41,290 nt of DNA from a bacterium (GTDB lineage: Bacteria; UBP15; UBA6099; JAJRTR01): contig JAJRTR010000164.1 in assembly GCA_024278215.1 (NCBI GenBank), positions 1-41,290 of the forward strand, written 5' to 3'. Below are positions 6,156 to 24,068 of the stretch, one piece after another. The notes beneath the pieces are model-generated. The model saw nothing but the letters and a program-made list of their open reading frames with translations. It did no database searches and had not been told where the DNA came from. The position numbers and the translations under genes are program-made. Within the stretch, counting starts at the first letter, position 1. Each line of letters opens with the position of its first letter.

Positions 6156-6201
6156 AGTTTTTCGAGTTTTTATGTGAATATTTCAAAAAGGAGAATCCGC
6201 T

Positions 6202-6657
6202 ATGAATCAGGAAAATAAAGATTGCTATGTTGTCGACGGAAAGCTGGCGTTGCCTTACCAGTATTTCGCGGGCAGAACCGGCAGCAGGTTCCTAATATCG
6301 CTACGCGACAAGAAAAAAATCTTCGGCGTTAAATGCAACAAGTGCGACAAGGTATTCGTGCCGCCCAGGCAGACTTGCGAACGCTGTTTCGAGAACATAA
6401 GCAATAACTGGGTGGAGTTATCTGACACAGGCGAGATAGTTAACTTCTCAGTGGTGCGATACGAGGGCAAACATCTGCCGCGCAAGCCGCCATTTGTACT
6501 CGCGCTTATCAAGCTGGGCGGTGCCGATACACCGATGACGCATATCGTCGAGGGAATCGAGCCGGAAAAAGTCGAAGTCGGCATGAAGGTCAAAGCAACA
6601 TTTTCAGACGAACCGACAAACACCATTCTCGACCTCGACCATTTCGAGCCGGTGTAG
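6202..6657 (+). CDS. DUF35 Zn-ribbon OB-fold protein (ChsH2-C-like)
   Basis: CNKCDKVFVPPRQTCERC Zn ribbon, PPFVLALIKLGGADT and VEVGMKVKA. AAGGAG RBS. Confidence 0.9.
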   Translation: MNQENKDCYVVDGKLALPYQYFAGRTGSRFLISLRDKKKIFGVKCNKCDKVFVPPRQTCERCFENISNNWVELSDTGEIVNFSVVRYEGKHLPRKPPFVLALIKLGGADTPMTHIVEGIEPEKVEVGMKVKATFSDEPTNTILDLDHFEPV

Positions 6658-6771
6658 GACATTGCGGCATAGCCGGTTCTTGCGTTTTTTCGAAACACCT
6701 TTGGAAACTGTCCGGATAATTTGTTGTTTTGCGTTTCAATTTAACTGATCACATTATACAGGAGGTTACAG

Positions 6772-8277
6772 ATGGGGTTTTCATACTATTGGTCTCCGGA
6801 GCATCAGCGTGCCTGGAGTGAAAAGCAACTTCTACGCTATGTGAAAAGTCATATTCTTACATACCATCCCTTCTATAGAAAGAAGTGCCGGGAAATGGGA
6901 ATCGGCAGCGGGAATCTGAAAAACTATGAGGACTTCAGGAAGTTCCCTCTCGTGACCAAAACGGACCTGGTTGAAGACCCACGCGCTTTCATCCTTCAGC
7001 CGACGTTTCCCGGCAGAGAACCGCTGTACAAGAACATCGCTCCCATCAGGAAAGCGGACCTCCTCAGATACGCATACCAGGCAGTTCGCCGACCGCTGCT
7101 CGCCAGCGCAACAGGCGAAGAACGCACCTTGAAAAAACGCATCGAGGCCGAAGCGCGGCGGGAATGGTTCCCCATACACTTCCATGCAAGCGGTGGCACA
7201 ACCGGCAACCCGAGTCCCGCTGTATATACTCATCACGACATCTTCAACGTCACCCCGAGTATAGTTTCTATGTCCAGCTGGTGCGGCATCAAGCCCGAGC
7301 ATAAAATGTTGAACCTCTTCCCCGCCGCACCGCACCTCGCTTTCTTTCAGGTAGTATTCAGTCAGTTTCTGATGGCCGGACATGTATTTCATACATGCGG
7401 CGGATCGGTAATACCCACAGAACGACAAATCCAAATCTGCGAGCAGCTTGAATTTGATAATATCGTAGCCATCCCATCATATCTTACGTACTGGCTTGAA
7501 GTTGCGGAAAAAATGCGAAAAAGGGGCGACATAAAGAAGATTGACAACATCAAGTATGCCGTCGTTTCGGGAGAGCCAATGGTACCCGCTTACCGCGAAC
7601 GCATTAAAGAACAGTTCGCCGCCATCGGATCAAAAGATGTCACTATTATTGAGGGCTACGGAATGACAGAGTTGAAAGGCGCATTTTATGAGTGCGCCGA
7701 AGGCTCGGGCATTCATTTAAATACTGAACATTACTTCTGGGAAGTGCTTGATCCTGAAACAAAAGAGCCGGTGCCGGAAGGTCATGAAGGTGTTCTCACT
7801 TTCAGCCATATAGACTTCCGGGGCACCGTGTTGATCCGCTACTTCACCGGTGATCTCATAAAGGGAATGGTATGGGAAAAATGTGAGCACTGTGGGCATA
7901 CCAGCCCGAAACTGCTAACGCCCCTGTGCCGCGCGGTTAAAGATTTTACTAAAATAAAAGGCTCGCGCGTTAACCTTTTGAATCTCCAGACCGCCATTCG
8001 AAACACCGAGGGAGTCGAATCGTTTCAGGTGGTCATAACCAAACAACGTCCGGAAGACCCCTATTCAAGAGACTGGGTCCGAATACACGTTGCGAAAAAA
8101 GCAGATGCGAATGAGCAAACCATAGTTCCGATTCTGAAAAAGAACGTGAAACTCGACTGTGAAATATCGCCGTCCGAGGTGATATTCAATACACCGGAAG
8201 AAGTCGAAAACATGCTGTTCGCCCGCACCAACCTGAAAGCCGACTGGATTATAGACGAACGGCAGGTGCATGTGTGA
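6772..8277 (+). CDS. Phenylacetate-CoA ligase (PaaK)-family adenylate-forming enzyme
   Basis: HASGGTTGNPSP P-loop, EGYGMTE, ECAEGSGIHL and RYFTGDL. AGGAGG RBS. Substrate unknown. Confidence 0.85.
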   Translation: MGFSYYWSPEHQRAWSEKQLLRYVKSHILTYHPFYRKKCREMGIGSGNLKNYEDFRKFPLVTKTDLVEDPRAFILQPTFPGREPLYKNIAPIRKADLLRYAYQAVRRPLLASATGEERTLKKRIEAEARREWFPIHFHASGGTTGNPSPAVYTHHDIFNVTPSIVSMSSWCGIKPEHKMLNLFPAAPHLAFFQVVFSQFLMAGHVFHTCGGSVIPTERQIQICEQLEFDNIVAIPSYLTYWLEVAEKMRKRGDIKKIDNIKYAVVSGEPMVPAYRERIKEQFAAIGSKDVTIIEGYGMTELKGAFYECAEGSGIHLNTEHYFWEVLDPETKEPVPEGHEGVLTFSHIDFRGTVLIRYFTGDLIKGMVWEKCEHCGHTSPKLLTPLCRAVKDFTKIKGSRVNLLNLQTAIRNTEGVESFQVVITKQRPEDPYSRDWVRIHVAKKADANEQTIVPILKKNVKLDCEISPSEVIFNTPEEVENMLFARTNLKADWIIDERQVHV

Positions 8278-8585
8278 CGTGATACCTGTTGTCAAACCGC
8301 AAATATATATAATGTCGTATCAACAAAGAAAAGACGGAAGAACAGATAAGGCCCAGCCTGCAAGTCGAAGTTGCGCCTGAAATTAATCTTTCACACCGGG
8401 GCGCAAGAAAAACCATCGCACGCGCAAGTTTTCACAAGTCACGGCAGTCATTTTCCGGTATTCAGCAATTAATCAACCAGCAGAACTCAACAAAACAGGG
8501 GTTTCCGTTCTGGCACTATATGTACGGTTGCTTGCAATTGATTCACAACTATACAATACTTAATATAAGGCAGATATACTTAAAC

Positions 8586-8640
8586 ATTGCGTTTTCAGGT
8601 AACCCCAGATACCTCCTTATTGCATCTTTAGGTAACCTCA
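8586..8640 (+). promoter_or_regulatory. Pair of 22-bp imperfect direct repeats upstream of the cytidylyltransferase cassette (candidate operator)
   Basis: ATTGCGTTTTCAGGTAACCCCA (8586-8607) vs ATTGCATCTTTAGGTAACCTCA (8619-8640): 18/22 identical with a 33-bp period. Each contains the near-palindrome GGTAACC. Confidence 0.4.
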
Positions 8641-8708
8641 CCCCAATACATGGGCCGAGTGAGGATTGTTTATTTACCGAACACTATATCGGACACTACA
8701 GGAGAAAA

Positions 8709-9575
8709 TTGGTCATATCAAACGAAAACGATTATATCGAAGAACGTGTAACAACAGCCGTACTCCTTGCAGCCGGCACAGGAACACGCCTGCAACCCTT
8801 GACGCTCAATTCACCCAAATGCATGACTATGGTAAATGAAACTTCCATATTAGAGCGATTAATATCCAGCCTGAATCAACATGGTTTCAAACGTCTGGTT
8901 GTGGTCACAGGCCACCTGGAATCCTGTATTCGCAGATATCTGGGGAACCGGGCCGGCAACATGAAGATTGAATATGTTTTCAGTCCACTATATAAGACAA
9001 CCAATAACATATATTCACTATGGATGGCCCGCAAAATTATAAACGAGCCTTTTTTGCTGATTGAAAGTGACCTTGTTTTTGATCCATTTTTATTGTGTAA
9101 CATGCTTTATCCTGACAGAATTGCAGTTGCTCGCGTGCAGCCATGGCTTCACGGTTCAGCAGTTACAATAAATCAGTTCAACATGGTTGATGCATTCCAT
9201 AATGACACTATAAACCTTCCAGGGGAGATAAGATATAAGACTGTCAATATCTACAGCCTTTCCCTCTCTTCGTGGAACAGGGTTGTCGAGACATTAAATA
9301 AGTATGTTCTGGCAGGTGAAGTGAATAGCTATTACGAAGCCGTGTTCGGTCGAATGGTTGCAGAAAAGCGCTTATCATTTCAAGCTGTTTTTTTTGACGG
9401 TAACCCATGGTATGAAATTGACACCTTAGAGGATCTTGCATCAGCGGAAAGGCTGTTCCCTTCGAAATTTTGTGAAGCGATCCCCTTTCAGCATATACAT
9501 ACAGGTAGTTTGATAAACACAAACCTGCATGCCGGTAAAACAACCTGTAATGGAAATAATCATGGTGAATTCTGA
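8709..9575 (+). CDS. Nucleotidyltransferase, LicC/phosphocholine cytidylyltransferase-like
   Basis: AVLLAAGTGTRLQPLT...PKC, YKTTNNIYSLW, LLIESDLVF and WYEIDTLEDL. Probable TTG start at 8709 after AGGAG. Confidence 0.85.
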   Translation: MVISNENDYIEERVTTAVLLAAGTGTRLQPLTLNSPKCMTMVNETSILERLISSLNQHGFKRLVVVTGHLESCIRRYLGNRAGNMKIEYVFSPLYKTTNNIYSLWMARKIINEPFLLIESDLVFDPFLLCNMLYPDRIAVARVQPWLHGSAVTINQFNMVDAFHNDTINLPGEIRYKTVNIYSLSLSSWNRVVETLNKYVLAGEVNSYYEAVFGRMVAEKRLSFQAVFFDGNPWYEIDTLEDLASAERLFPSKFCEAIPFQHIHTGSLINTNLHAGKTTCNGNNHGEF

Positions 9576-10671
9576 TTACAAAACCCAGGCGGATAAGTAT
9601 GAATTCATCGCAGGTCAGCATGGAGGATACTATCGCCATGACTTTATAGACCATGCGTATCTGTATAACCTTTATTTTCCTCCTGAAGAAGTTTTTGATA
9701 TCTTAAAAAACCGAATCCACGACCTTGTTCTTAACTACCCTGTTGCCCAGAACGCCCTTGCCGCTCTTGTGGGTAACCTGATTAATCAACACCCTCAACG
9801 TATTGTTGTCGGTAACGGTGCAGCAGAACTTATCAAAATAGTCTCAGGACATATTGCCCACAGGATTATTGTTCCAGTACCTTCTTTTAATGAATATATA
9901 AACGCAGCACCAAAGGTGCGGGCCATAGAGTTTCTACTTGAATTTCCGTCCTTTCATCTGGATGTAGATAAATTTGCAGCTCAAGCGATTAAAGACAAAG
10001 CAGATGTTGCTGTTGTGGTAACACCGAATAACCCGACCTCCATGGCCATTCCCAAACTCGATCTAATACGCCTGGCAAAAAAACTGGCCAATCATGATTG
10101 TCATCTGATTATTGATGAATCCTTTATCGATTTTGTCGTGGACAGCGCTCAGACAACCATGGAACGTGAAATTGAGCAATATCCGAACATTTCCATTTTC
10201 AAAAGCATGAGTAAGGCATATGGCATCTGTGGTCTTCGCATCGGCTATCTTCTGACGGCAAATTCAGAATTTGCCCAAGCTGTACGTCAAGGAGTTCATA
10301 TCTGGAACATTAACGGATTTGCCGAGGAGTTCTTAAGGATTTTACCCGATTTTAGTGAAGTTTTTATTGAAAGCTGTAACCATGTAAAGGAAGACCGTGA
10401 CAAGCTTTATGAAGACCTGAAGAGTTTTCCGGAAGTAAAGATTTACAAACCTGATGCTAACTTTATTTTTTGCCGTCTGCCTGATTCCGCGCCAAATGGG
10501 CCTGAAATAACAAAGAAATTATTTATTGAGCATAACATTTACATAAAACACTGTCGGGATAAAACTCTTCAGGATTCTGACCGTTACATTCGTATTGCTT
10601 CTCGAACTCAAAGCGAGAATTCCAACCTGTTGGATGCACTGGCGTCTATCCTTGGATATAAAAACAGTTAG
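9562..10671 (+). CDS. PLP-dependent class I/II enzyme (HisC/CobD-like aminotransferase or amino-acid-phosphate decarboxylase)
   Basis: VGNGAAELI, PSFNEY, TPNNPT, IDESFIDF, KSMSKAYGICGLRIGY (PLP lysine) and ANFIF. Start is 9562 or 9529. Confidence 0.9.
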   Translation: MVNSDYKTQADKYEFIAGQHGGYYRHDFIDHAYLYNLYFPPEEVFDILKNRIHDLVLNYPVAQNALAALVGNLINQHPQRIVVGNGAAELIKIVSGHIAHRIIVPVPSFNEYINAAPKVRAIEFLLEFPSFHLDVDKFAAQAIKDKADVAVVVTPNNPTSMAIPKLDLIRLAKKLANHDCHLIIDESFIDFVVDSAQTTMEREIEQYPNISIFKSMSKAYGICGLRIGYLLTANSEFAQAVRQGVHIWNINGFAEEFLRILPDFSEVFIESCNHVKEDRDKLYEDLKSFPEVKIYKPDANFIFCRLPDSAPNGPEITKKLFIEHNIYIKHCRDKTLQDSDRYIRIASRTQSENSNLLDALASILGYKNS

Positions 10672-10681
10672 GGCAGACTTA

Positions 10682-11329
10682 ATGAAAAAGTCACAATATC
10701 CGCAATCACATCAGACAGGAATGCTTTACTTTGCCAGAGATATTCCAAACATCTGTTCCCTTGCCGGGCTTTTATGTGCTGTCCTGGGCATGTACTTTGC
10801 TATTCTGCGAATTTTTCCGGTGGCCATCACAGGAATGCTCTGGGCTGTTGTTTTTGACTGGAGTGATGGAATCATTGCCCGCAAAATAAAGGGCAGAACA
10901 GATGTGCAAAGAACATTCGGCGGACAGCTGGATTCATTGATCGATATGGTAAGCTTCGGAATATGTCCTGCTGTTATTCTTTTAAGCTATGGGGATTTTA
11001 GTCCATGGTTCCTGCCGGGAGCCTTTGTAATTGTCGCCACCAGTGCAATAAGACTGAGCTACTTCAATGTTTTCGGCCTTGTAGATGATTCAACTTATAT
11101 GGGGCTTGCACTTGATAACAATATAATAATTCTTTCTTTTGTTTTTCTATTTGATAGTTTTTTCAGCCACTCGGTTTTTTCGGCCATTCTCTATACAATG
11201 TTCATGGTTCTGGCGGCTTTTAACATAGCTTCTGTTAAAACCCCAAAATTCACCGGAAAATGGTTTTATATTCTCATACTTTATTCAATCACATTAACAA
11301 TTATCTACAGTTGGATACTATGGGGATGA
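10682..11329 (+). CDS. CDP-alcohol phosphatidyltransferase family membrane protein
   Basis: Signature DWSDGIIARK...FGGQLDSLID, IPNICS, RLSYFN and multiple hydrophobic segments. Confidence 0.9.
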   Translation: MKKSQYPQSHQTGMLYFARDIPNICSLAGLLCAVLGMYFAILRIFPVAITGMLWAVVFDWSDGIIARKIKGRTDVQRTFGGQLDSLIDMVSFGICPAVILLSYGDFSPWFLPGAFVIVATSAIRLSYFNVFGLVDDSTYMGLALDNNIIILSFVFLFDSFFSHSVFSAILYTMFMVLAAFNIASVKTPKFTGKWFYILILYSITLTIIYSWILWG

Positions 11330-11759
11330 GCACGACAAATAAGTGTAAACAATACAGTTCCTTGCCTGAATCCGAATACCTGCACGTTTTTGTCATTTTT
11401 CGAAATCCATATCCATATTTTGATCATTCTATCCACCCAATAAACAGGGATTATCACGAATAGAATTGTTTCCCTGATTTCAGAGCAAAATATTTCCCCT
11501 TCTTTCAGAATCCCTAACCCGGAAAACCGGTGCCAAACAGGCCGCATTTTCGTGCCCAAACAAATGCGGTTTGAGCACGGCACACAGAGTTCCATCGTTC
11601 TAAAGGTCTACCTCGGAAACGCCTGTAACTGGAAGCTCCAGCTTTCACCGATCTCTTTTCAGCATTTCTCTACCATCCTGCGTAGCATTTCAGTCGTAAG
11701 ATACAATTGAAAACCGCTATAGAAATCACCGATTGTTCATTTCTTTGATTATGATGATA

Positions 11760-11795
11760 TATCCTTCTGTCTGCGCGACCATGGGCTCGTGCTCC
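11760..11795 (+). repeat. 36-bp direct repeat, left copy (REP-like hairpin or att-like site)
   Basis: TATCCTTCTGTCTGCGCGACCATGGGCTCGTGCTCC is 35/36 identical to 22936-22971. Confidence 0.9.
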
Positions 11796-11898
11796 AGCCG
11801 GGCCGCCCTGCTTTACTCGAAATAATTTCGCCCGGACTCGTAACAAACGTGATTTTGTACATGGCTCTTTTGGGAGATTATAAAAATCATGAAAAGTC

Positions 11899-11926
11899 TT
11901 GATAAAAGGTCAAATAATGTTATACT
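11899..11926 (+). promoter_or_regulatory. Sigma70-type promoter for the giant-protein operon
   Basis: TTGATA, 16-nt spacer, TATACT, with a TGn extended -10 and an AT-rich upstream region. Confidence 0.55.
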
Positions 11927-12129
11927 TAGCGCCAATCAATTCAATTCAAATCATTTCATTCATTTTGATGACGAATGTGTCGGTTCATTTCAGGTGAATA
12001 TACGATGAGGAACGCCATTTTCAGGTATCGTGTACGGTCAGTTGGGAAGATCGTAAAAATACCGATCCGTTGAAGACGGATGTATGTTCTGAAAATCGAC
12101 GACAATCACGGTATACCAGGGAAAAAAAT

Positions 12130-15100
12130 ATGATAAATACAAAGTTGATCAAGGGAATCGTTTTTACGGTGTCATTTTTTTTGTGTGGTCTGTTTGCGGC
12201 TGTGCCTGCCGCGGCGCAGGACACAACGCCACCCTCGTGCGTTGTTGACGAGCTGGCCGATATACAGGGCGAGGCCACTTTCGCGGTGCACTGGGCCGGT
12301 GCCGACGAGTCCGGCGGATCGGGACTGACGGGGCTGTATCGTGTGCAGGTGCAGGACGCTGCCGAGGGTACATGGACCGACTGGCTGGTGAATACGGAAC
12401 AGACTAACGGCAGTTTTGCGGGCCTGGACGGACATACATATTATTTTCAGTGTGCGGCTAAAGATGTCGCAGGCAACTGGACCGCGCTTGCCGCCGATGG
12501 GTTCGGAGACACGGCTACTACGGTCAGGACGGAAAATTTGTCCGTCCAAATTGTTAACGACGGCACGGGCGATGATACCGATTTCACTTCCAGCGCCGAC
12601 ACACTGTCCGGCAACTGGAGCGAGGCATCAGGGGCCGTGGGCTACTCCTATTGCATCGGCACGGCTCCCGGCGAGGCCAATGTTCTGGCATGGACCGATA
12701 CGTCGAGCACTTCCTTCACCGACTCGGGACTCACCCTGGTGCACGGTGTGGTTTACTATATTTCCGTGCGTGCCAAAACCGCCGCGGATTACTATGGCGA
12801 CATATCTGTTTCGGACGGTATCGTTTCAGACCAGACAGCGCCGGACGCGCCATCGGTGGATACGGACGCGCAGATTCAATCCACAAGCATGATCCAGGCC
12901 ACATGGTCAGCCTCCGATCCCGAGTCCGGCATAGTGCGTTACGAAGTGTCCGTGGGCACGACGGCGGGTGGCACCGATGTCGGCGACTGGGCGTCCGCGG
13001 GTTCGGCCACGGTGTATGACATTACGGGATTGAGCCTTACCGTGGGCGGCACATATTTCGTAAATGTGCGTGCTGTCAACGGCGCAGGGGCCGTGAGCGA
13101 CGTGGGATCGTCGTCCGCTGTCGTCGTGGTCGGCACAATACCGGCCGCGCCCGCGTATGTTAACGACGGCACCGGCCAGGACGCGGAGTACACCTCCGAT
13201 ACCACACGGCTGTCGGCCAACTGGAGCGCTGTCGCCGACGCCTCAAGATATGATTATGCCGTCGGGACAACACCGCTGGGCACCGACATCGTGAACTGGA
13301 CGGACGCGGGAGCGGTTACCTCTTACGAAGTATCTTCGCTCACACTTACTTCCGGAACCACGTACTATTTTTCGGTTCGCGCGATCAACGGGTCCACACC
13401 GGGACCGGCCATAACCTCGGACGGTATAACCGCGGACACCTCCGCGCCCAGCACACCGATTGTCGAAACCCCCGAATTGCTGATAAGCAATACCACACAG
13501 TTGCAGGCTTCGTGGAACGCGGAGGAACCTGAATCCGAAATCACACTTTATGAATATGCCGTGGGAACATCTCCCACGAGTCAGGATGCCCTGGGTTGGA
13601 CCGGCACCGGCACCAGCGTCTCCGTCGTCATCAACAATATAGACATGCAAGTGGGTAAGACCTATTTTATCCAGGTGCGGGCCACAAACGGCGCGGGTCT
13701 TGTCAGCAACACAGGTGTGTCCGATGCAGTCGTTGTCACACACAACGCAGACATTACCACTACTTTCAGCCCTTCCGAAGTCACTACCGTTCAGACCGAT
13801 GCCGGGAACGCCGACTCTATTATTACAATATATTTCAACGAAAGCAGTGGCGTTGGTGTGGACTATCATCAGCTACAGATGCTTTATGTACTCGACAACG
13901 GCACCGAGTTCGAAGACCAGGTACGAATGATCACCGGTACGGGGCAGCCCGATCCCATCCAGGTGGGCGGAGACGCCGGTATGTCCATCGACGCCGGAAT
14001 ATCCATCACCCCGGGCGGGGCTGAATCGTATCGTTTCGCAGTGGTGATTCCCGAATACATTGTAACCCATGCGGTGGGCGGACGTGCCGATGCTTCTTTG
14101 ACAATGCGTTTCATCTTCACCGGTACGGACGAAAGCAAGCAGGAAGTGACAACAATTACGAACGTGCCTCTGGTTCTTTCTTCACATGCCGCCGCCGCTT
14201 CAGACCTGCACGTGGACGAAGTATCCATCACATCGCCCACCGCCGGCATGAATATCACGAACCCCGTTGCTTTTGCCGCCGCCGCCACCGTCAAAACCAC
14301 GGGCAGCGGAGACATCAAGGGCTACTGGGAACTCGACGGACGGCCCTACCACGAATTCAGGGAACACGCCTCCGCGGGAAGCGACATGACATTGAGTGTA
14401 AAGCTGCCCGAGTCGCTGGGGGGCCGCCACACGCTTATTCTGAAGATCATCATGCCGGAAGTTATGGAATCCGCACCGGTCGTCTTTACTGTAACCGACG
14501 TAATCAAGGGGGCCGTATTTACGGACTTCTGGGCCGGGGACCTTCACTTCACCGATGTGCGCGCAATCTTCGATGGAGACCTCAAGGCTTACAGCGGGTC
14601 CGCAAAACTGGAATACGGAGTGATCAGGCTCGAAACACCTGTTCCTTTCAGCAACCTGACAATCGAAGAACGAAACGGACGCTATGAGCTTACAGGCGGT
14701 GCCCTCAAGACAGAGATCGATTTCAGAGAAGTTCATGATGCACTCAGCATCTATGTGGACCGGCTGGCTGTGACCACGAGCGGAGCGAAGGTGGACGGGC
14801 GTGTGCATTTCGAAGGAGCCGATGGGGTGCCGGGCATAGGGCCGCTGCATTTCTACGGTGTTGACATTACATCCGACGGCATTACAGGCTCGGTAACATT
14901 CCCTGAAAAGCAACAGGGCACCATCGGCATTTTCAACATCGCCATCAACTCCGTACATTTTTCATACACTTCCGGCGGGCTGACGCTGGACGCCTCTGCC
15001 GTGCTCACACTGGGCGACGAGGGAACAGCGGGCGGTTCACTGGATTGCGTATTCAGCGTTTCCAGTTCCGGTTCGGCTGTTTTCCGGGTCGGCGAGCAGG

Positions 15101-18100
15101 CATACGAAAAAGCAGGTATCACCGACACACAATCCGGGCTCGGCAACGATCTGGTACTGGCTGGATTCACGTACCATGTAACCTATGGCGAACTCAGCGA
15201 AAAAGACGGCGCACTGGCTCTCGACGCCACCGGCGGCGCACTGGACGCGGCAGCGGCTCTCGGACCCGGAGTCAAGCTGAATATCGGCTCCTTACGTATG
15301 ATCGACACGGGCTCGATCACGCTGTCGGACATATCGTCGCCCGAATTCAGTTTCGGCTCCTTCTCGGCAAAAGCCACAGCACGTGAAATCACGCTTTCTC
15401 TGGGTGAGATCCCGGACCTTGTTCTGGACATGGAGATCACAGCGCCGATGGGCGGCGGGAAGCTCGTGTTGACCGCAGAAAATGTCCCTGTTGGCAAAGA
15501 AGGCATCCGTGATGCGGACATCACCGTCAAACCCGCCGGAGGCAGCGATCATGTGGCGGAACTCCGCTTGCTCGACTGGGCGGACCTGAAGGTAAGTAGC
15601 GCAATCATACACGTCAAGGACCGCAAACCCACAGGTATGGTTCTGACGGCAGGGCTGTCTTTCGACGGCAAAGGTTTCGAATCTGAAAATATTACCTGGG
15701 AAAACAACGACTGGAGCGGTACGCTGCACGCCGTGGGCGATCCGTCATTCGAGCTTGCAGGCGCGAAAATGGAGTTCCCGGCGGGCAGTGAGATAGACCT
15801 TACCATGAAAGGCGAGGGCAATGACGGACACAGCGTCGCCGTAATATTCAAAAACACTTCATTCGACTTTTCCGGACTGATAGGCAAGCCTTTCAAGTTC
15901 ACCGTGGACGAGTTGTCTGTAACCGACGGTGCAGTCGCCGCGGACGTCAGCGTGCATGACACCGTTACGCTGGCCGACCTGTCGCTTGCTATCAACAAGT
16001 TGCATATCGACAGCCCCAGACCCGCCACGGGCGGTAAACGGACAATCGACGCACTGCTCGGAGGCACACTTATTCTGAACGCCGGGCGTAAAATAAAAAT
16101 CGGATTCAACAATATGAAGATGTCGAGCACCGGTGAGATCGGTGGCGATATTTCTCCGGGTTACGACACGGAGTTCAACATGTTCGGGGCCTCGTTCCGG
16201 ATCAAAAAGATACATCTTGACAAACCGGCGGACGGCGAACTCCGGTTCACTATGGACGGCTCTATAGGATTCCTGAATTCACGCGTGGACTTTACGGGCA
16301 TGACATACAGGAAAGGCAAACTGAACGTACACGCCGAAGTGTCGGGAAACGCACCGCTGCGAATGCCCGGCCTGCATTTCATAGGCTTCACAAAGCTTGA
16401 CGTAGTGGACAACAAACTGGAGGCCGACGGATTTTTCGAACTGCCCGCGCCCATCAACAAGCGTGTTCCGCTGGAAAACCTCGCCATCGACACATCCGGC
16501 GGGCTGCCCGACAGAATTGAGATCGACAATCTTTCTTTCAACGTGGACGACTTCACGTTCAAAGTCTCGAAGGCGAGTTTCGAGTTTAAAACCAAGGCAC
16601 TGACACTCGATGGGAATATTGCATTGCCTGACGGATATTTCGACCAGATGATACCGTTCCGGAATGTGAGCCTGACAATGCCCGAGGGCGATTCAGGGCG
16701 TCCCGCGCAGGCGGATATGTCAAAGGCAAGCACGACGGCCACGGAGATAAAGGACACAAGGCACAACCTCCCGCTCCAGATCAGCAAGTTTTCCATCGGC
16801 ATCGATCCTGCTCACAACAGCAAGTGGTTCGTGAATCTGTCGGGCAAGCTCAGTATGGAACTCGACGGCCAGAGTTTTTACCTGGACTTCCTGAATTATA
16901 AAATATACTCGGACATGAGCATGAGCATGGGCAGAGTATCAGGCGGATTGAAGATCGGCGGGTTCGACGTAAATGTAGACGACCTCGATATCGTGGACAA
17001 CGTGAGCGATCCATACACTCAGATAACCGGTGGCATGTCCATGGAATCGCTCGGCACCGTTGCGGTCAAGGACCTGCGCATACACAGGTCGGGAGCCGTG
17101 GAACTGGCCGGAGTGCATCTTGACATGGACTACAACGCCTACAAATATGACGTGAACATCAGCTATATCGACAAGACATTCAAGGGCAGCGGCAGGATCA
17201 CGTTTGAAAACGAGGAACTCGACGTGTCCGCTATATTCGGTCCTTCCGAATGGATGCTGGACATAGAGGCAAGCGGCCTCGACATCGAACTGTTCCCGGG
17301 CGTGACCCTGGTAAAGGTCGGCGGCGGCGTGCATTACTGGAAAAACAGCAATTTGCTGAAATTCAAAATCGACTGCGGACTTGCTCTCCCCGAAAAAGAT
17401 GTGCTGTACGGAGACGTCGAACTTGACGTGGCCACCAATGGGATCATCGGCATCAATGGGAATCTCATCATGTTCGACTCCCTGCCGGTCAAGGAGGCCT
17501 ACATCCATATCGATATTCCACACGCTACCCTGGCCGGCACAATTGTGCTGAATAAAACAATTGGAGGCGTCGCGAATGCCGATGTGACGCTCGATGTTTT
17601 GTTTTCGCCGAACAACTGGTATCTCAGCGGCAATGGCAACGCAAACATACTGGGAAGTCTCAGTATCAATCCAGTGAGCTTCCGGCTTGACAGCAACGGT
17701 TTCCGCGCAAGCGGCCACAGCAATATCAATGTTGTAATTATGACTGCGGGATTTGATTTTAACCTTGACATAACCACCGGAGGCAGCGTGAGCGGCTCAT
17801 TCGCCGGTCACGTGGGTGCCACGATTCTTGGCATTGTACACGTTTCAGGCGACCTGGAGGTAGCCTATATCAACGGCGCGTTCGACGGCCATGTCGGGCT
17901 GAGCGGCTGCCTCGACGTCTGCATGCCCGGCTGCTCCTGGCACTGGGTAAACCACTGCTGCTGCGGTTTCAATTATCCCTGCGGCTGCTCATGGCACTGG
18001 TGGGGCATTTCCTGTGGTTCATGCCACACGCAAATATGTGTTCCCCTGTACCAGCCCTATAATTGCAGTTGGTGTTACAGTAAAATCCATAAATGCGCCA

Positions 18101-18153
18101 GCATCAATGTTTACCTGCGGATCGACAGCGGCGGCATTCACGCCCATCTATAA
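12130..18153 (+). CDS. Giant secreted protein (~2007 aa): signal peptide, ~5 FN3-like domains, Ig-like domains, long beta-rich repeat region, C-terminal 14-Cys hairpin
   Basis: Signal peptide MINTKLIKG...AVPAAA/QD. FN3-like repeats (W...D.ESGI..Y...VGT..G...W; G.TY...VRA.NGAG). Recurring G.(L/I).(L/F)....F.(N/D)(L/M).I...G units. ATG 12130 follows AGGGA. Confidence 0.85.
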   Translation: MINTKLIKGIVFTVSFFLCGLFAAVPAAAQDTTPPSCVVDELADIQGEATFAVHWAGADESGGSGLTGLYRVQVQDAAEGTWTDWLVNTEQTNGSFAGLDGHTYYFQCAAKDVAGNWTALAADGFGDTATTVRTENLSVQIVNDGTGDDTDFTSSADTLSGNWSEASGAVGYSYCIGTAPGEANVLAWTDTSSTSFTDSGLTLVHGVVYYISVRAKTAADYYGDISVSDGIVSDQTAPDAPSVDTDAQIQSTSMIQATWSASDPESGIVRYEVSVGTTAGGTDVGDWASAGSATVYDITGLSLTVGGTYFVNVRAVNGAGAVSDVGSSSAVVVVGTIPAAPAYVNDGTGQDAEYTSDTTRLSANWSAVADASRYDYAVGTTPLGTDIVNWTDAGAVTSYEVSSLTLTSGTTYYFSVRAINGSTPGPAITSDGITADTSAPSTPIVETPELLISNTTQLQASWNAEEPESEITLYEYAVGTSPTSQDALGWTGTGTSVSVVINNIDMQVGKTYFIQVRATNGAGLVSNTGVSDAVVVTHNADITTTFSPSEVTTVQTDAGNADSIITIYFNESSGVGVDYHQLQMLYVLDNGTEFEDQVRMITGTGQPDPIQVGGDAGMSIDAGISITPGGAESYRFAVVIPEYIVTHAVGGRADASLTMRFIFTGTDESKQEVTTITNVPLVLSSHAAAASDLHVDEVSITSPTAGMNITNPVAFAAAATVKTTGSGDIKGYWELDGRPYHEFREHASAGSDMTLSVKLPESLGGRHTLILKIIMPEVMESAPVVFTVTDVIKGAVFTDFWAGDLHFTDVRAIFDGDLKAYSGSAKLEYGVIRLETPVPFSNLTIEERNGRYELTGGALKTEIDFREVHDALSIYVDRLAVTTSGAKVDGRVHFEGADGVPGIGPLHFYGVDITSDGITGSVTFPEKQQGTIGIFNIAINSVHFSYTSGGLTLDASAVLTLGDEGTAGGSLDCVFSVSSSGSAVFRVGEQAYEKAGITDTQSGLGNDLVLAGFTYHVTYGELSEKDGALALDATGGALDAAAALGPGVKLNIGSLRMIDTGSITLSDISSPEFSFGSFSAKATAREITLSLGEIPDLVLDMEITAPMGGGKLVLTAENVPVGKEGIRDADITVKPAGGSDHVAELRLLDWADLKVSSAIIHVKDRKPTGMVLTAGLSFDGKGFESENITWENNDWSGTLHAVGDPSFELAGAKMEFPAGSEIDLTMKGEGNDGHSVAVIFKNTSFDFSGLIGKPFKFTVDELSVTDGAVAADVSVHDTVTLADLSLAINKLHIDSPRPATGGKRTIDALLGGTLILNAGRKIKIGFNNMKMSSTGEIGGDISPGYDTEFNMFGASFRIKKIHLDKPADGELRFTMDGSIGFLNSRVDFTGMTYRKGKLNVHAEVSGNAPLRMPGLHFIGFTKLDVVDNKLEADGFFELPAPINKRVPLENLAIDTSGGLPDRIEIDNLSFNVDDFTFKVSKASFEFKTKALTLDGNIALPDGYFDQMIPFRNVSLTMPEGDSGRPAQADMSKASTTATEIKDTRHNLPLQISKFSIGIDPAHNSKWFVNLSGKLSMELDGQSFYLDFLNYKIYSDMSMSMGRVSGGLKIGGFDVNVDDLDIVDNVSDPYTQITGGMSMESLGTVAVKDLRIHRSGAVELAGVHLDMDYNAYKYDVNISYIDKTFKGSGRITFENEELDVSAIFGPSEWMLDIEASGLDIELFPGVTLVKVGGGVHYWKNSNLLKFKIDCGLALPEKDVLYGDVELDVATNGIIGINGNLIMFDSLPVKEAYIHIDIPHATLAGTIVLNKTIGGVANADVTLDVLFSPNNWYLSGNGNANILGSLSINPVSFRLDSNGFRASGHSNINVVIMTAGFDFNLDITTGGSVSGSFAGHVGATILGIVHVSGDLEVAYINGAFDGHVGLSGCLDVCMPGCSWHWVNHCCCGFNYPCGCSWHWWGISCGSCHTQICVPLYQPYNCSWCYSKIHKCASINVYLRIDSGGIHAHL

Positions 18154-18175: not shown

Positions 18176-20491
18176 ATGAAACGAATCGTTTTATACATTA
18201 TTGCAGTACTTGTATTCCTGTGCGGAATTTCCGATGCACAAACAAAAGACATCACCGAACCCGCGTCCCACGCACTGGCTACGGATTCCGCCGTGTACAT
18301 GTTCGTTAATGTATTGCCGATGGACGGAGTGGCGGGCTTCATGGTGTACCGCGCAGACGAACCCATCGCCGCACTCAACCGCGAGCACGGCGCCTTCTCT
18401 GAAAAATCATCTTCAGACCTGAAAACCGGTCTGGATTCCGCGCACCGCCAGATCCTCGACAAAATACTCGAGGGCAAAACCCTGGACGAACTGCAAAAGG
18501 AAATCGAAGAACTCGAGAAAACTGACCCACAGGCTGCCGAAAAACGCAAACAGGAAATAAAGGCCGCTATCGAACAGAATATCAGGGATTACGAAACCGC
18601 TTCCGAAAAACTGCAACACGACAGCAAGAACGCACTGGACCAGCACCATGAGGATTATAAGAATAAGGTGGAAAACGCCATCGAGAACGGTCCGGCCCCG
18701 GAGGACTTCAAACTGCTCACGGACACACCCGTGACACCCTTCACCGACGATCAGAAAATCATGGACGAACTCAACCTCGTCGACCTCGATTCACTTAAGG
18801 CGATGGGGCTGCAGTCCGCTTCGGAACTGGTGACGAAATATGACGAACACAAGGGCAATATCAACCTGCTCCTCCTGCACTCCCTGCCTGTAAACAGAAT
18901 CATGGGCCGCGTATACGAAGACACCACCGTGACGCCCGGCAACGGGTACGTTTACCGCGTGGACCTTGTAGATGATAAAGGCAATGTGGTGCGCAGCCTG
19001 CCCCCGATCACCGTCATCGCACAACCCAATCCACCGGCCACTCCTACAGGGTTCATAGCCGAGGCGAAATCGGATCATGTCGAACTGCGCTGGGACAAAC
19101 CCTCTAACATTCCTACCGGCTGGATCATTCTGCGCTCGGATTCTTCCCGCGATGCAGAGTTCACAAAGATCAATCCCGGCGTTATTTCAAGCATCGGTAA
19201 GTCCATATTCAAAGATTATTCGGTCAAACCCGGCATGAAACTCAGTTACAAACTTTTCGCCGTGGACACTGTGGGCAACCGTAGCATACCCGCGGAATCA
19301 CCGTCTTTCACCTTCGTGGACATCGTTCCACCGGCTCCACCCACAGGCGTAAAAGCCGTTTTGAAAAACGGTCGCATCTCCCTGACCTGGCCCCGAAGCA
19401 GGGAAACAGACCTGGCCGGCTACAATGTCTACCGCAGTAATACTCCGGATGGAGACTTCAAGTTGCTCACCGACACATCGCTGGCCGCAGACGCCGTCGA
19501 ACACATATCGGATGTGAATGTACCCGGCACTGTCCATTACTATCGCATAACCGCTCTGGACACTACAGGCAACGAAAGTGCGCCTTCACATTTAGCATGG
19601 GTCGTACCCCCGGACACTCTGGGGCCGGATTCCATCTCCGATCTCTCGGTGGAACAATCGGGGCCGGACTCCGTGACTCTGACATGGACCTGCAACGAAC
19701 CGAAGGACATGCACGGGTATCACATTTATCGCGGCTACTCGAAGGACAGCCTGAAAAAGATACACACATCCGTCATCCCCAAAGGAACATATTCCTATGA
19801 GGACAGCAACCTGCGTCCGGGCGAAACTTACTACTATGCGGTCGCGGGTGTCGACATCAATATGAACGAAGGCGCTCTTTCCGGTATCGTCGAGGTCGTC
19901 GCTCCCGACAGTGAAGCCCCCCTGCATCCCGCCAACATCGCCGCCGCGCCCGGCGACGGGATGGTCACGTTGTCGTGGCCCGCGAACCACGAACCGGATG
20001 TGGCCGCATACCACCTGTATCGCTCAAACGGGGAAAACAGCCCCTTTTCCAGAATCTTTATTTCCGACGCTGCAACTACGCAATATGTGGACAAAGATGT
20101 GGAGAACGGACTGGAATATATGTACTTCATCAAGGCCGTGGACAGTGCGGGCAACGAAAGCGCACAATCGCATACGGCATACGCAACCCCGCGTGACACC
20201 GCGGCACCGGCAGCCCCACGAGACACGAACGTCGAGGTGTCTGCCGCAGGCGTCACAATCTCATGGAAAGCGCCGAATGAACACGACATCGTGGGATACC
20301 TTGTGCTGCGCGCACAAGCGGAAACCGCCGTATATGAAACCATTACCGATCAGCCCGTAACCAACAACAGCTACACCGACACAACCGCCGCGGGAGAATG
20401 CTGGTACAAGATAGTAGCCGTTGATACATCGGGAAACAGAAGCCCGCGAAGCAACGCCGCGGGACCGGTCATACTCAGGGCCGGTAAGTAA
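18176..20491 (+). CDS. Secreted fibronectin type III repeat protein with an N-terminal helical insert
   Basis: Signal peptide. Repeats P.PP..V....V.L.W....E.D..GY.(V/I)YR...Y.D.....Y.Y...AVD..GNES. A charged helical stretch (ELQKEIEELEK...KRKQEIKAAIEQ) interrupts the first domain. GGAGG RBS. Confidence 0.9.
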   Translation: MKRIVLYIIAVLVFLCGISDAQTKDITEPASHALATDSAVYMFVNVLPMDGVAGFMVYRADEPIAALNREHGAFSEKSSSDLKTGLDSAHRQILDKILEGKTLDELQKEIEELEKTDPQAAEKRKQEIKAAIEQNIRDYETASEKLQHDSKNALDQHHEDYKNKVENAIENGPAPEDFKLLTDTPVTPFTDDQKIMDELNLVDLDSLKAMGLQSASELVTKYDEHKGNINLLLLHSLPVNRIMGRVYEDTTVTPGNGYVYRVDLVDDKGNVVRSLPPITVIAQPNPPATPTGFIAEAKSDHVELRWDKPSNIPTGWIILRSDSSRDAEFTKINPGVISSIGKSIFKDYSVKPGMKLSYKLFAVDTVGNRSIPAESPSFTFVDIVPPAPPTGVKAVLKNGRISLTWPRSRETDLAGYNVYRSNTPDGDFKLLTDTSLAADAVEHISDVNVPGTVHYYRITALDTTGNESAPSHLAWVVPPDTLGPDSISDLSVEQSGPDSVTLTWTCNEPKDMHGYHIYRGYSKDSLKKIHTSVIPKGTYSYEDSNLRPGETYYYAVAGVDINMNEGALSGIVEVVAPDSEAPLHPANIAAAPGDGMVTLSWPANHEPDVAAYHLYRSNGENSPFSRIFISDAATTQYVDKDVENGLEYMYFIKAVDSAGNESAQSHTAYATPRDTAAPAAPRDTNVEVSAAGVTISWKAPNEHDIVGYLVLRAQAETAVYETITDQPVTNNSYTDTTAAGECWYKIVAVDTSGNRSPRSNAAGPVILRAGK

Positions 20492-20517: not shown

Positions 20518-22539
20518 ATGAGCAAAGCTGTTTTCAAATACTTGTTGCCGTTCGCACTTGCCGTGGCACTCTTCAGCAACCCCGCCCATGCACTCAAGTT
20601 TCACCTGAGCGAACCTTCCAGTCACCCGGATAAAATCGATGTAACCACAAATCCGCCCGTCACTTCCGGGACAACAGCGGGCGTGAACCCGGCCAACGTA
20701 GGAGCCGCAGGCTCCGTACCGGCAAGCGACACCGGCACAGGCAACACTACCGCGCCAAGGGGCCGCGCACTCGGCGACGGCAAATACAACGGAATCTTTT
20801 CCGCATGGCAGCCCCTCGACAACACGCTGCCACTCAAATCCGCCCAAATCGAGCTCGGTGTCATCTCGCACAGACAGCACCGACAGATGCGCAACATTCT
20901 GTCACGCAGCGTTTTCACCGGCAACTATTATCTCGAAGGCGTCGAGTCAAATACGATTATCGACAAGCTCGGCTGGAAAACGCAACTGCACCGTCAGCTT
21001 AAAGGGAAACCCGTCACAAACTCACTGATTTCAATAAACGGTGAACAGAGCGGACTTACATTCAAATACGACGAAAAGGAAAAACTCACCAGTCTGGCCG
21101 CACCGAAAACCGGGGGAAACCACACGCGCAACCGCACGCTCTCCGTCGACTACAAACACTCAGACGCTCTCACTTTCAAACTCAAAAGCGACTCCCGGCT
21201 TCATCACACCATGGGCGGCACCCCCACAAATACCACCTCGGAAAAGTACGACTGGAGCGCGGGATACCTGTTCGCCGAAAACTCGCAGCTGCTATTGACA
21301 CACACCGACAACACAAGCCGCAACCGCATAAACAATAAAACTTCGCGCAACATCGGCACAGGCGTCACTCTGACCATGCCGCTGGCAGGCATTTTCGGGG
21401 TGCGCCTGGGCTATAAACACAACGACAACTTTCTAAACTCCAGCGGCACGGGCACCAGCCACAACTCACGCACCGCCTCCCTTGCCGTCATCTGCCAACT
21501 GCAAGAAGATTCGCAACTCACCTGGACCATCAGTCACTCCAACCTGAAAAGCATGTCCGGCACGTCCACCCTGGACTACGATGTCGCAGGTCAGGAAATC
21601 AATCTGCATTACGTCTTATCCAAAGCCCTGACACTAAATACAAAAAATATTCTCAAAGACGACGACGCAAACGGCAAATACACTCACAATCAGGCCGTGC
21701 TCGTTCTGGACCACTCGCATTTCCGCATTCTACCGGGGAAAACCACATTCACCACGAAAAAAACCATCAACCGCGCAGGCAGCGGCGCTCACAAGACAGT
21801 GGCCGAAAACAACACGATCAACCTGCCTCTTTCCTACCTCAACGGACGACTCAAGGCCAGGGCTCAACTCAACTTCAGCCGCAACAGCAGACTCAGCGCG
21901 GTCTCCAGCAACGATACATCGGCCAATAACCACAACTACAGGGTCACTTACAACATCCTGCGAAACCTGAAAGCTAAACTGGAAGCAAAAAGCATGGAAC
22001 AGACCGCATTCTCCGGTGACGGGCTTGCCTCGATGAAATCCAACAACGTCTATTCCGAAAAACTTTCCTACGAACTCAAAACGCCACTCGCAGGCATACC
22101 AGCCGTCACAGCCTTCAAATACGACCTCAAAACCAGCAGGTCGCGCAACAGAACCTTTGCCCCACGCAACGCTTTCAGCATCTCCAAAATAACATCGAAT
22201 ATCGGCACATTATCATTCGCCGACGGCAACTACTCCGGCTCCTACCAGTTCGAACACTCGAACTCGCGCCAACCCCACGGCATTGCTTTCCGCGCACTGA
22301 AACACAGACTTAAAATCAACATCGCCGATTTCGTCGGCTTCAAACTCACCTCGGATTACACGGCTGTGTTCCAGACAAAAGGCTTTTCCAACAACGGTAT
22401 TCTCAAACTATCCCAGGTGCTGGACAACAACAATGTCTTCTCCCTCGCCTGGGAGTTCAGTCGCAACCAGGACAAAAACAACTTAACGGGAAACAGGAAA
22501 AGCGAGTATCTGGAAGCCACGATGGAATTGAACTTCTGA
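20518..22539 (+). CDS. Putative large outer-membrane beta-barrel protein
   Basis: Signal peptide (PAHA/LK) and a Pro/Thr/Gly linker. Many alternating amphipathic strands with N/S/T-rich loops (LSVDYK, WSAGYLF, VRLGYKH, INLHYVL, YRVTYNI, FSLAWEF). C-terminal EYLEATMELNF resembles a BAM beta-signal. Confidence 0.75.
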   Translation: MSKAVFKYLLPFALAVALFSNPAHALKFHLSEPSSHPDKIDVTTNPPVTSGTTAGVNPANVGAAGSVPASDTGTGNTTAPRGRALGDGKYNGIFSAWQPLDNTLPLKSAQIELGVISHRQHRQMRNILSRSVFTGNYYLEGVESNTIIDKLGWKTQLHRQLKGKPVTNSLISINGEQSGLTFKYDEKEKLTSLAAPKTGGNHTRNRTLSVDYKHSDALTFKLKSDSRLHHTMGGTPTNTTSEKYDWSAGYLFAENSQLLLTHTDNTSRNRINNKTSRNIGTGVTLTMPLAGIFGVRLGYKHNDNFLNSSGTGTSHNSRTASLAVICQLQEDSQLTWTISHSNLKSMSGTSTLDYDVAGQEINLHYVLSKALTLNTKNILKDDDANGKYTHNQAVLVLDHSHFRILPGKTTFTTKKTINRAGSGAHKTVAENNTINLPLSYLNGRLKARAQLNFSRNSRLSAVSSNDTSANNHNYRVTYNILRNLKAKLEAKSMEQTAFSGDGLASMKSNNVYSEKLSYELKTPLAGIPAVTAFKYDLKTSRSRNRTFAPRNAFSISKITSNIGTLSFADGNYSGSYQFEHSNSRQPHGIAFRALKHRLKINIADFVGFKLTSDYTAVFQTKGFSNNGILKLSQVLDNNNVFSLAWEFSRNQDKNNLTGNRKSEYLEATMELNF

Positions 22540-22570
22540 CACGTACCTGTCTGAATCTCAAGAGGGATAT

Positions 22571-22602
22571 ATTCCCCGCCGCTTGCAGCGGGGTAGTTCA
22601 TT
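22571..22602 (-). repeat. REP/IS200-IS605-end-like palindrome, copy 1
   Basis: Minus strand AATGAACTACCCCGCTGCAAGCGGCGGGGAAT forms a hairpin. A related copy lies at 24179-24212 and a degenerate one at about 22608-22635. Confidence 0.65.
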
Positions 22603-22935
22603 ACATGTCATAGTCCCCGGGCCGGACAGTTCATTATAAAGTGGCTGGGAGAAAACCCCCGAAAAACGCGATTGCTCATAGGCAGCGGGATGAGCGACCA
22701 GCCTGGGTTCGGGGTGAAGATGGAATCCGCTCTGTTTTCATGCTCTTTTCTCGACTGCGCCGTGATGAGATATGCCGGCGCATTCCGCGTTGTTTTTCTA
22801 TTCAATTTTTAAAACATCTATAATCGGCAGGCGCTTTTGATCTTGTTCTTTTTCCGCGTCTCGTTGTATTTCCTGATGCGCCGCCTGCGTTTGTTTTCTT
22901 TTTTGAAGAATAGCGAGCCGAGTGTGTGAGTAATG

Positions 22936-22971
22936 TATCCTTCTGTCTGCGCGACCAGGGGCTCGTGCTCC
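22936..22971 (+). repeat. 36-bp direct repeat, right copy
   Basis: TATCCTTCTGTCTGCGCGACCAGGGGCTCGTGCTCC has one mismatch to 11760-11795. Confidence 0.9.
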
Positions 22972-23083
22972 TGTCAACAGGTAGCAAATTGCCGACGTAA
23001 ACAAAACTATTCCGAGCCAATAAACTATTCTCAAATTTTATAATACACGTACTGCCCCTTACACTTCCGCTATGTGCATAATT

Positions 23084-23127
23084 CTAGGTCTGACACCAAT
23101 ACATGCTAGGTCTGACACCAATACATG
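23084..23127 (+). repeat. Perfect 22-bp tandem duplication
   Basis: CTAGGTCTGACACCAATACATG x2, followed by degenerate TGACCCGCCAAT and CTGACCCCAAT units up to about 23151. Confidence 0.9.
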
Positions 23128-23224
23128 ACCCGCCAATCCCCTGACCCCAATCCCCCCCCAAGTAAATCTCCACCTTCTCTTCTGCCTTCACCCCTGTGAA
23201 CGGGTACGATAAAAGATAGCCATT

Positions 23225-23857
23225 TTATCTAATTGCATCAGCTTTATTTTGCTTTTTAATTTTAAGATATAATCTTCTCAGATACTCTTCAGAAAAGTAA
23301 GGTAATTCTTTGACTTTAATTACGCAAATATCCTCAGGATTCTTACCATGTAAGCAAAAAACAAAATTAAGAAAGAGATTCGTTTTTTTTGAATCAGAGA
23401 AAGTATAGTTTATCTTATAAGCATCATTGTATAGAGAGAAATCTATATCCTCACCAAAGTATTCTTTCAACTCTTTCACAAAATTATGCCAATAAACCGC
23501 ATTTTCCACAACTTCCCATTGAACACCATTAATTGTTTTAAATGGAGGAGTTACACCATATTCCTTATAAATTACAAATTTTTTCTTTTGAAGTTTTTTC
23601 TTAAACACACGTAATTCTTCCTTTGTCGGCATATAGCTGGTAAAATAATCCTTGCATATTATTAGTTGGCCATTTCTAATTTCAGTCGCGAAATTAACAT
23701 CTTTGACATTTTTAACAACATAAGGTACTTCCTTAATTATTTCAAAATTAGCGTCATTTTTATTCCCAATCGCAACATATGATTTATTATTACATGACAT
23801 TGTAGAAATAATAATAAAAACAAGCATGACATTAATCATATTTATGTTAAATTTCAC
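23225..23857 (-). CDS. AT-rich putative lipoprotein of unknown function (immunity-protein-like context)
   Basis: AGGAGG RBS 7 nt before GTG at 23857. Hydrophobic leader ends in ISTMS-C (lipobox-like). Much more AT-rich than the neighbouring genes. Confidence 0.7.
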   Translation of the reverse strand: MKFNINMINVMLVFIIISTMSCNNKSYVAIGNKNDANFEIIKEVPYVVKNVKDVNFATEIRNGQLIICKDYFTSYMPTKEELRVFKKKLQKKKFVIYKEYGVTPPFKTINGVQWEVVENAVYWHNFVKELKEYFGEDIDFSLYNDAYKINYTFSDSKKTNLFLNFVFCLHGKNPEDICVIKVKELPYFSEEYLRRLYLKIKKQNKADAIR

Positions 23858-23918
23858 AAACAAGCCTCCTATTCATGTTTTTAAATTACATAAAGAAGTT
23901 GTAAATATCATGGCTCGA

Positions 23919-24068
23919 TCAAAAATCAAATGCTCCATCCGGATGAAACCCTGTTGGCCAATTTGCAACATCGTTTCCACATTCTGGTTGTCCATAATAC
24001 TTATCTTTGAAATTATTATTATAATCTTCTACACATGCAGATCTACAGTCTAATCCATTATTGTGAGA
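23919..24068 (-). pseudogene. Orphan C-terminal gene fragment upstream of the lipoprotein
   Basis: Start-less AT-rich frame SHNNGLDCRSACVEDYNNNFKDKYYGQPECGNDVANWPTGFHPDGAFDF*, ending about 60 nt before the lipoprotein start. Confidence 0.4.

Follow-up and report, generated by a model that had tools for sequence, protein, structure and literature searches.

The window analysed here is the 41,290-nt stretch of contig JAJRTR010000164.1 (assembly GCA_024278215.1; GTDB lineage Bacteria; UBP15; UBA6099; JAJRTR01), and its subject is a segment of 63 amino acids (aa) with 14 cysteines close to the C-terminus of an exported giant protein of 2,007 aa. Alignment with the protein family showed this segment to be, at the level of sequence, a lineage-specific expansion by about 56 residues of a short turn that is closed by a conserved cysteine pair. 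The expanded turn sits at the tip of the final beta-hairpin in this exported protein, which is an orphan built as an amphipathic beta-meander. We read the segment, with about as much confidence as doubt, as a multiply disulfide-bonded, aromatic-faced knob that is carried on a beta stalk and closed by the ancestral pair Cys1-Cys63. The gene, the segment and its internal features are located as follows:

12130..18153 (+), gene for the 2,007-aa exported giant protein; the likely start is ATG 12130, the same start as in the homologue P0003
17908..18096 (+), 63-aa segment with 14 cysteines; Cys1 is encoded at 17908-17910 and Cys63 at 18094-18096 (family-invariant pair)
17917..18084 (+), 56-residue Cys/Trp block present only in the window protein and P0003 (MAFFT alignment of six sequences over the part that corresponds to gene B of the relatives)
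17928..17946 (+), copy 1 of a direct repeat, encoding GCSWHW
17982..18000 (+), copy 2 of the repeat, encoding GCSWHW and continuing into the central WHWWG (17992-18006)
18013..18027 (+), CGSCH, a CXXCH motif (CNWCH in P0003)

Identification of the cysteine-rich segment

The open reading frame (ORF) spans 12070-18153 (+) and opens at TTG 12070. Read by eye, the N-terminus of the 2,007-aa protein is a hydrophobic signal-like peptide ending in AAAQ. The only domain matches over the Pfam cut-off in the giant protein were Fn3 domains at its far N-terminus, and for the remainder no family match was obtained in Pfam or NCBIfam. Translation of 17908-18096 (+) reproduced the 63 residues quoted in the first-pass annotation, which had been made from the nucleotide sequence, and all of its cysteine positions were exact (1, 5, 9, 17, 18, 19, 25, 27, 36, 39, 44, 53, 56 and 63). 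The segment lies 19 residues before the end of the ORF and holds 14 of the 21 cysteines of the ORF (20 if counted from ATG 12130) and 6 of its 27 tryptophans. Outside the segment and the signal peptide five more cysteines are present, which gives the mature form an odd cysteine total. Trp, His, Tyr and Phe (6, 5, 4 and 1, respectively) together make up 16 of its 63 residues, and just three residues are charged.

The description of the segment as cysteine-dense within an otherwise cysteine-poor protein was borne out by shuffling of the 2,007-aa protein, since in 20,000 shuffles the densest 63-aa window contained at most 7 cysteines (a value reached by 3 shuffles) versus the 14 observed. The clustering is therefore far beyond chance, real and highly non-random. 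When the 4.55-Mb genome was scanned in all six frames, a denser 63-aa window (17 and 15 cysteines) was detected in just two open frames; these are short (102 and 154 aa) and by eye seem to be non-coding. The motif CSWHW had no other occurrence in the genome. Within the segment CXXC occurs twice (CGSC and CSWC), accompanied by a CXC (CGC) and a CCC. No single one of the motifs CXXCH, CXXC and CCC is significant by itself: shuffles that preserved the composition contained CXXCH in 17.7%, two or more CXXC in 78% and CCC in 33% of cases.

The two copies of the direct repeat are 19 nt long, identical at 18 of 19 positions and 54 nt apart. At the protein level the repeat reads GCSWHWxxxxC with copies 18 residues apart, its self-alignment score of 51 was reached by 8 of 300 shuffles, and a third CSW follows the two GCSWHW copies at Cys53. 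Part of the insert probably arose through internal duplication of this GCSWHW...C unit. The base composition of the segment is uneven: its last 30 codons (18007-18096) have a GC content at third codon positions (GC3) of 0.47 and an overall GC content of 0.42, versus gene means of 0.66 and 0.56, which places them in the lowest 1.6% and 0.5% of gene windows, respectively, and the first 33 codons have a GC3 of 0.85. Given this GC3 contrast, the two halves of the insert may be of different age or origin.

Protein family and conservation of the insert

A HMMER search with the last 328 aa against 1.84 billion representative proteins returned four proteins with E-values of 3e-31 to 3e-178. The closest, P0003 (2,005 aa), is 78% identical over the last 328 aa and 74% over the whole protein, and the other three are 31-35% identical. 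Two further distant members were contributed by genome searches, so that the C-terminal alignment comprised seven sequences, namely the window protein, P0003 and five distant members. The family is an orphan one and corresponds to gene B of a four-gene cassette described below; it was found in 5 of the 13 species genomes available for the phylum and, when only the 6 of high quality are counted, in 3.

Cys1 and Cys63 were invariant in all seven aligned C-termini, and in the five distant members their equivalents are separated by just 4-8 residues. All seven share a C-terminal beta-meander whose last hairpin turn is closed by two cysteines and is followed by a strand resembling VYLRID. For a pair of cysteines closing a 4-residue hairpin turn of an exported protein, a disulfide is the simplest explanation. 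When six proteins were aligned over about 1,100 residues, the 56-residue block was the sole insertion of at least 5 aa that only the window protein and P0003 share. It is part of the best-conserved stretch of the protein, as the segment is identical to P0003 at 58 of 63 positions and just 0.3% of 63-aa windows are equally conserved. All 14 cysteines are kept in P0003 and none of the five substitutions hits a cysteine, an outcome with a chance probability of about 0.27; with a single insert-bearing homologue that is 92% identical there, the comparison of cysteine spacing is nearly uninformative.

In three of the five short-turn relatives (L005, L006 and P0004) a third cysteine was observed two residues past the second invariant one, making a CXXC, and the two-cysteine turn seems prone to cysteine gain.

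Beyond its one orthologue P0003 the segment was without sequence relatives in HMMER, word-index, family, PDB and DNA-pattern searches. Word-index searches with the 63 aa gave no candidate among proteins of 34-111 aa or 112-2000 aa, size ranges that exclude P0003 with its 2,005 aa, and neither the segment nor the C-terminal domain had a match in Pfam, NCBIfam or PHROGs. With Pfam at E-values up to 10, where the HMMER filters remove most matches above an E-value of about 0.1, neither the 63-aa segment nor the C-terminal 128 aa matched any family. The profile of the seven aligned C-termini had no match among PDB sequences at E-values up to 10, and phmmer with the last 98 aa gave three non-significant PDB matches (E-values 0.21-6.1). 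In the ESM Atlas the C-terminal 328 aa were placed next to unnamed clusters only, with scores of 0.90 or less and low recognition. No NCBIfam match to a C-terminal sorting domain, of the type IX secretion system or other, was obtained for the giant protein. A metagenome scan yielded two loci, both with C-terminal 70 residues identical to already known family loci. Among public sequencing runs none was listed with the stretch, and no RNA run was listed.

A DNA pattern encoding two CSWHW units, spaced as in the segment, was also run against 185,579 species genomes. Its four hits (L013-L016) were rejected, as none of them is a relative: they lie in unrelated genomes, in simple TGG/TGC-rich repeats, out of frame and with stops. 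The pattern is degenerate in that W-S-N also matches both Cys and Trp codons, which makes the chance estimate for it too low.

Structural model and predicted disulfides

The last 328 aa were modelled with AlphaFold on the basis of the seven-row alignment, with a mean predicted local distance difference test (pLDDT) of 64.6. The model consists of 20 antiparallel strands in an up-and-down meander, and its two longest strands (16 residues each; pLDDT 82-87 in 10-residue blocks) flank the insert:

17878..17925 (+), ascending stalk strand, model residues 238-253, including Cys1 and Cys5; the block 241-250 has a pLDDT of 82
18079..18126 (+), descending stalk strand, model residues 305-320, including Cys63 and the conserved VYLRID; the block 311-320 has a pLDDT of 87

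The placement of the segment between two beta-strands, which had been proposed from the sequence, was thereby recovered in the model. The other 18 turns are 2-6 residues long each. The model thus contains a feature of stalk-and-knob architectures, that is, a two-strand beta stalk around a long insert in a beta-rich body, and the part of the earlier proposal of a stalk-and-knob binder that fits it is that something would be held on such a stalk.

Structural comparison concerned the body. In VIA-align 48 of the 50 matches listed were membrane beta-barrels by entry title (Z 8.1-12.8), with root-mean-square deviations (rmsd) of about 11-21 Å for 45 of these 48 and mostly around 15 Å; among the matches listed, LptD fitted the model with an rmsd of 5.6-6.5 Å over 190-195 residues. 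With Foldseek at E-values of 0.001 or less LptD was the sole match (TMq 0.30). The modelled body is read as an amphipathic beta-meander, barrel-like or taco-like. A C-terminal Trp is present in just two of the seven aligned C-termini (P0004 and P0005), and the window protein ends in HAHL.

In the arrangement that we propose, several disulfides, up to seven, would hold the expansion together in a compact knob, whose base would be closed by the ancestral Cys1-Cys63 bond and which would be carried on the two-strand beta stalk. Through the almost uncharged aromatic surface of the knob, the C-terminal end of the protein would make contact with a partner, a ligand or a membrane interface. The disulfides of the knob are predicted, and the even number of cysteines in the segment (14) was counted in favour of pairing. 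A VKOR homologue was found in the genome (78.8 bits, over the Pfam cut-off) and in all four family-carrying relatives, and oxidative folding is therefore plausible.

Several observations weigh against this arrangement. DsbB was not found in the genome, which is 95% complete. The Cys/His-rich composition with two CXXC, one CXC and one CCC fits metal binding equally well. The insert is present in one homologue only (P0003), so that it offers no covariation and no real test of cysteine conservation. In the ESM Atlas the neighbours of the segment were keratin-associated proteins with scores of 0.79-0.86, below the threshold of 0.9 for a lead; they most likely reflect composition and are, if anything, a hint of intermolecular cross-links. 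Moreover, the insert itself (about model residues 254-305) was modelled with a pLDDT of 28-43 and without secondary structure, and single-sequence AlphaFold modelling of the last 228 aa was unusable (pLDDT 31). Because the pLDDT of the insert is just 28-43, the absence of strands there is no evidence either way; disulfide-rich peptides are indicated in one report to be hard to predict by such methods (PMC11035057).

Gene context and fusion

In the relatives four co-oriented genes recur in the order A-B-C-D, and the window carries the counterparts of all four, with A and B in one frame:

gene A of the relatives, Fn3-rich, more than 780 aa
gene B of the relatives, about 1,440 aa, ending in the cysteine hairpin
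14800..15021 (+, approximate, from blastp coordinates), A/B junction in the fused window protein
18176..20491 (+), gene C in the window, 771 aa, Fn3-rich, with a signal-like N-terminus
20518..22539 (+), gene D in the window, 673-aa orphan with an alternating-hydrophobic C-terminus ending in Phe
L008:6980-11648, L009:6857-11144 and L010:6930-11531, cassette stretches in relatives

By blastp, gene A of the relatives matches residues of about 70-1008 of the ORF, and gene B of the relatives matches, from its residue of about 335 onwards, residues of about 935-2049. Judged by these alignments, the window protein is a fusion protein in which A is joined to B, and B lacks about 335 residues at its N-terminus, its signal peptide among them. 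The fusion is not an assembly artefact, because P0003 has the same length and shares the fused form. Fusion and knob co-occur.

Gene C of the window is syntenic with its counterparts in L007-L010 (35-37% identical; about 700 aa in relatives) and gene D with those in L008-L010 (24-25% identical; about 730 aa in relatives). The C product contains 3 cysteines and the D product 1. For D no Pfam or NCBIfam family was found at the thresholds used, but across the cassettes its C-termini show alternating hydrophobic residues and a terminal F, Y or H, a pattern from which the D product is probably an outer-membrane barrel. With a signal-like N-terminus and a cassette that includes a probable outer-membrane protein, the giant protein is therefore placed in the envelope. 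The cassette was seen only in one small uncultured phylum (13 species genomes), and the gene B family is undescribed only in the sense that Pfam, NCBIfam and PDB lack it. Maturation of the thioether or RiPP type (ribosomally synthesized and post-translationally modified peptides) was also considered, but a Pfam scan of 25 window ORFs gave no match to a radical S-adenosylmethionine family at the thresholds used.

The cassette has a GC content of 0.53-0.57 and is flanked by stretches with a GC content of 0.41-0.43 (8001-12000 and 22001-24000). Genes for an NTP-transferase, a class I/II aminotransferase and a CDP-alcohol phosphatidyltransferase lie in the low-GC stretch upstream of the cassette and are possibly a module for head-group or surface-polymer modification. 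Elsewhere in the window, 2614-8277 contains two thiolase-like genes and genes for an SCP2 protein, a ChsH2-type OB/zinc-ribbon protein and an AMP-binding enzyme, a run that looks like a degradation set of the lipid or steroid side-chain type. At 27750-34992 (-) a helicase-nuclease pair of the AddA/AddB type is encoded, the AddA-type protein with a UvrD helicase and a PD-(D/E)XK domain and the AddB-type protein with an AddB N-terminal domain and a PD-(D/E)XK domain.

Alternative explanations

The strongest competitor of the disulfide-bonded knob, although unlikely, is a metal-thiolate/histidine cluster in which the 14 Cys and 5 His would be ligands of Zn, Cu, Fe, Ni or chalcophile metals; the cluster would either take the structural place of the disulfides or make the tip a binder of metal or metal sulfide. 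CGSC and CSWC lie 13 residues apart, a spacing like that of the zinc knuckles of zinc ribbons, and CGC, CCC and the five histidines add to the potential ligands; among the weak PDB sequence matches, those with E-values of 1.6-6.1 were to a zinc-finger protein and not significant. Against a cluster, the frequencies of two CXXC and of CCC in the shuffles deprive these motifs of weight, the aromatic share of the segment is unlike that of metallothioneins, and no metal-binding family matched in Pfam. Furthermore, the ancestral state is a two-cysteine turn that would be incapable of being a metal site, and the leader is of the Sec type without a twin arginine, as judged by eye, which argues against the insertion of an Fe-S cluster in the cytoplasm. 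Covalent heme c on CXXCH, with the tip as a redox site, is the least probable of all the explanations weighed here. The motif is kept in both proteins although its two inner residues differ, the protein is apparently exported, and three Cytochrom_C_asm matches over the cut-off in the genome make attachment possible in principle. However, CXXCH is common in shuffles of the same composition, 12 competing cysteines surround it, no cytochrome family matched in Pfam, and the all-beta body offers no helical cytochrome-like context. Both cofactor types enter a broader proposal that we regard as improbable, in which the knob would be a newly evolved mini-domain for heme c or a Cys/His metal-thiolate site. 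It would be located where a beta structure spanning the envelope ends on the outside, and this structure would be part of an undescribed four-gene A-B-C-D machine with D as an orphan outer-membrane protein; if true, a turn of 4 residues would have given rise to a novel type of extracellular element for redox reactions or mineral contact.

The cysteines may instead act between molecules, the tip forming disulfides with other copies of the giant protein or with other envelope proteins and so stiffening a surface layer. Disulfide cross-linking of the envelope is described for Chlamydia in one source (PMC6752827), the odd cysteine total of the mature protein would accord with it, and the keratin-associated proteins as nearest neighbours in feature space are a lead only. 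As those scores fall short of the threshold and most likely have a compositional basis, the partners C and D have few cysteines to offer, and the motif occurs in no other protein of the genome, we consider cross-linking quite unlikely. Still lower, at very unlikely, we place the architecture of the first-pass annotation, which envisaged one long beta-hairpin with six nested disulfides, a vicinal Cys17-Cys18 pair and WHWWG as an apex like that of a fusion loop. What stands of it is the outermost pair Cys1-Cys63, which is independently supported by its invariance, the position of WHWWG at the midpoint of the sequence, the aromatic and uncharged composition, and the arithmetic of the pair sums, which are 64, 61, 62, 63, 64 and 63. 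The mirror symmetry itself did not exceed chance: with the end cysteines fixed and the other 12 placed at random, 727 of 5,000 placements (14.5%) gave at least six disjoint pairs with sums in a 4-wide band. The six-rung single hairpin also lacks a common register, as the rung steps are 4, 4, 10, 6 and 2 on the N-side versus 7, 3, 9, 5 and 3 on the C-side, and because these steps differ every rung would need a bulge. The would-be strands contain four prolines (Pro7, Pro24, Pro46 and Pro50) and four glycines, and the direct repeat is a translational, not a mirror, symmetry that puts equivalent units at non-equivalent places of the hairpin. No strand was modelled in residues 254-304, at the low confidence given above.

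Implications

The segment offers an example of domain birth, in that a two-cysteine turn of 4-8 residues in one lineage corresponds to a 63-residue, 14-cysteine, Trp-rich module in another. The expansion of the module accompanies a gene fusion, and no other part of the protein is as strongly conserved as the module. Should the module be able to fold alone, it would represent a new disulfide-rich (or metal-bound) scaffold from bacteria, without sequence relatives and of interest to peptide-scaffold engineering, and it would offer a way into the function of this uncharacterised envelope cassette. The practical importance is limited, because the organism is uncultured and just two sequences carry the module.

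Comparison with known systems

The segment is a cysteine-rich mini-domain on a hairpin and belongs to neither the granulins nor the bovine stalk-and-knob antibodies. In granulin/epithelin, twelve cysteines form six disulfides in a stack of four beta-hairpins according to one account (PMC7463432). This is the nearest real cysteine ladder of such size, with about 60 residues and 12 cysteines compared to the 63 and 14 here, and a column of disulfides pins the hairpins. Differences are that PF00396 gave no Pfam match at E-values up to 10 and that granulin is eukaryotic; its pattern of four CC doublets is absent from the segment, which has one CCC. The nested-disulfide antiparallel hairpins of theta-defensin, tachyplesin, protegrin and gomesin, as portrayed in two sources (PMC13001179, PMC6099743), represent the architecture that the first-pass annotation had proposed. 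The segment does not show the constant i+j register of such a cystine ladder. Cystine-stabilised hairpin peptides have 2-3 rungs in strict register in about 18 cationic residues, whereas the six rungs here would be out of register in 63 nearly uncharged ones.

Metallothionein-like domains are rich in cysteine with few or no aromatic residues, and no metallothionein profile in Pfam matched the segment. Envelope proteins of Chlamydia, as far as the source cited above describes them, and keratin-associated proteins resemble it in being cysteine-dense; their own cysteines act between molecules, and neither has a sequence relationship to it. The modelled likeness to LptD, to large outer-membrane beta-barrels and to TamB-type sheets concerns the body and not the knob; the meander here runs over more than 1,000 residues with short turns on both sides, and the body had no sequence match in Pfam, NCBIfam or PDB.

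The bovine ultralong heavy-chain complementarity-determining region 3 (CDR H3) is an analogy only, without homology, as the host here is a bacterial non-immunoglobulin protein. The 14 cysteines are more than are present in bovine knobs, and the insert is germline-fixed and conserved instead of diversified, with disulfides and binding that are only predicted. The likeness, in so far as the cited accounts cover it (PMC5994613, PMC8602281, PMC12371982), is that in both cases a disulfide-rich mini-domain of roughly 40-70 residues would be carried on a two-strand beta stalk that grows from a loop of a beta-rich body, and that a short loop was expanded in a lineage-specific manner.

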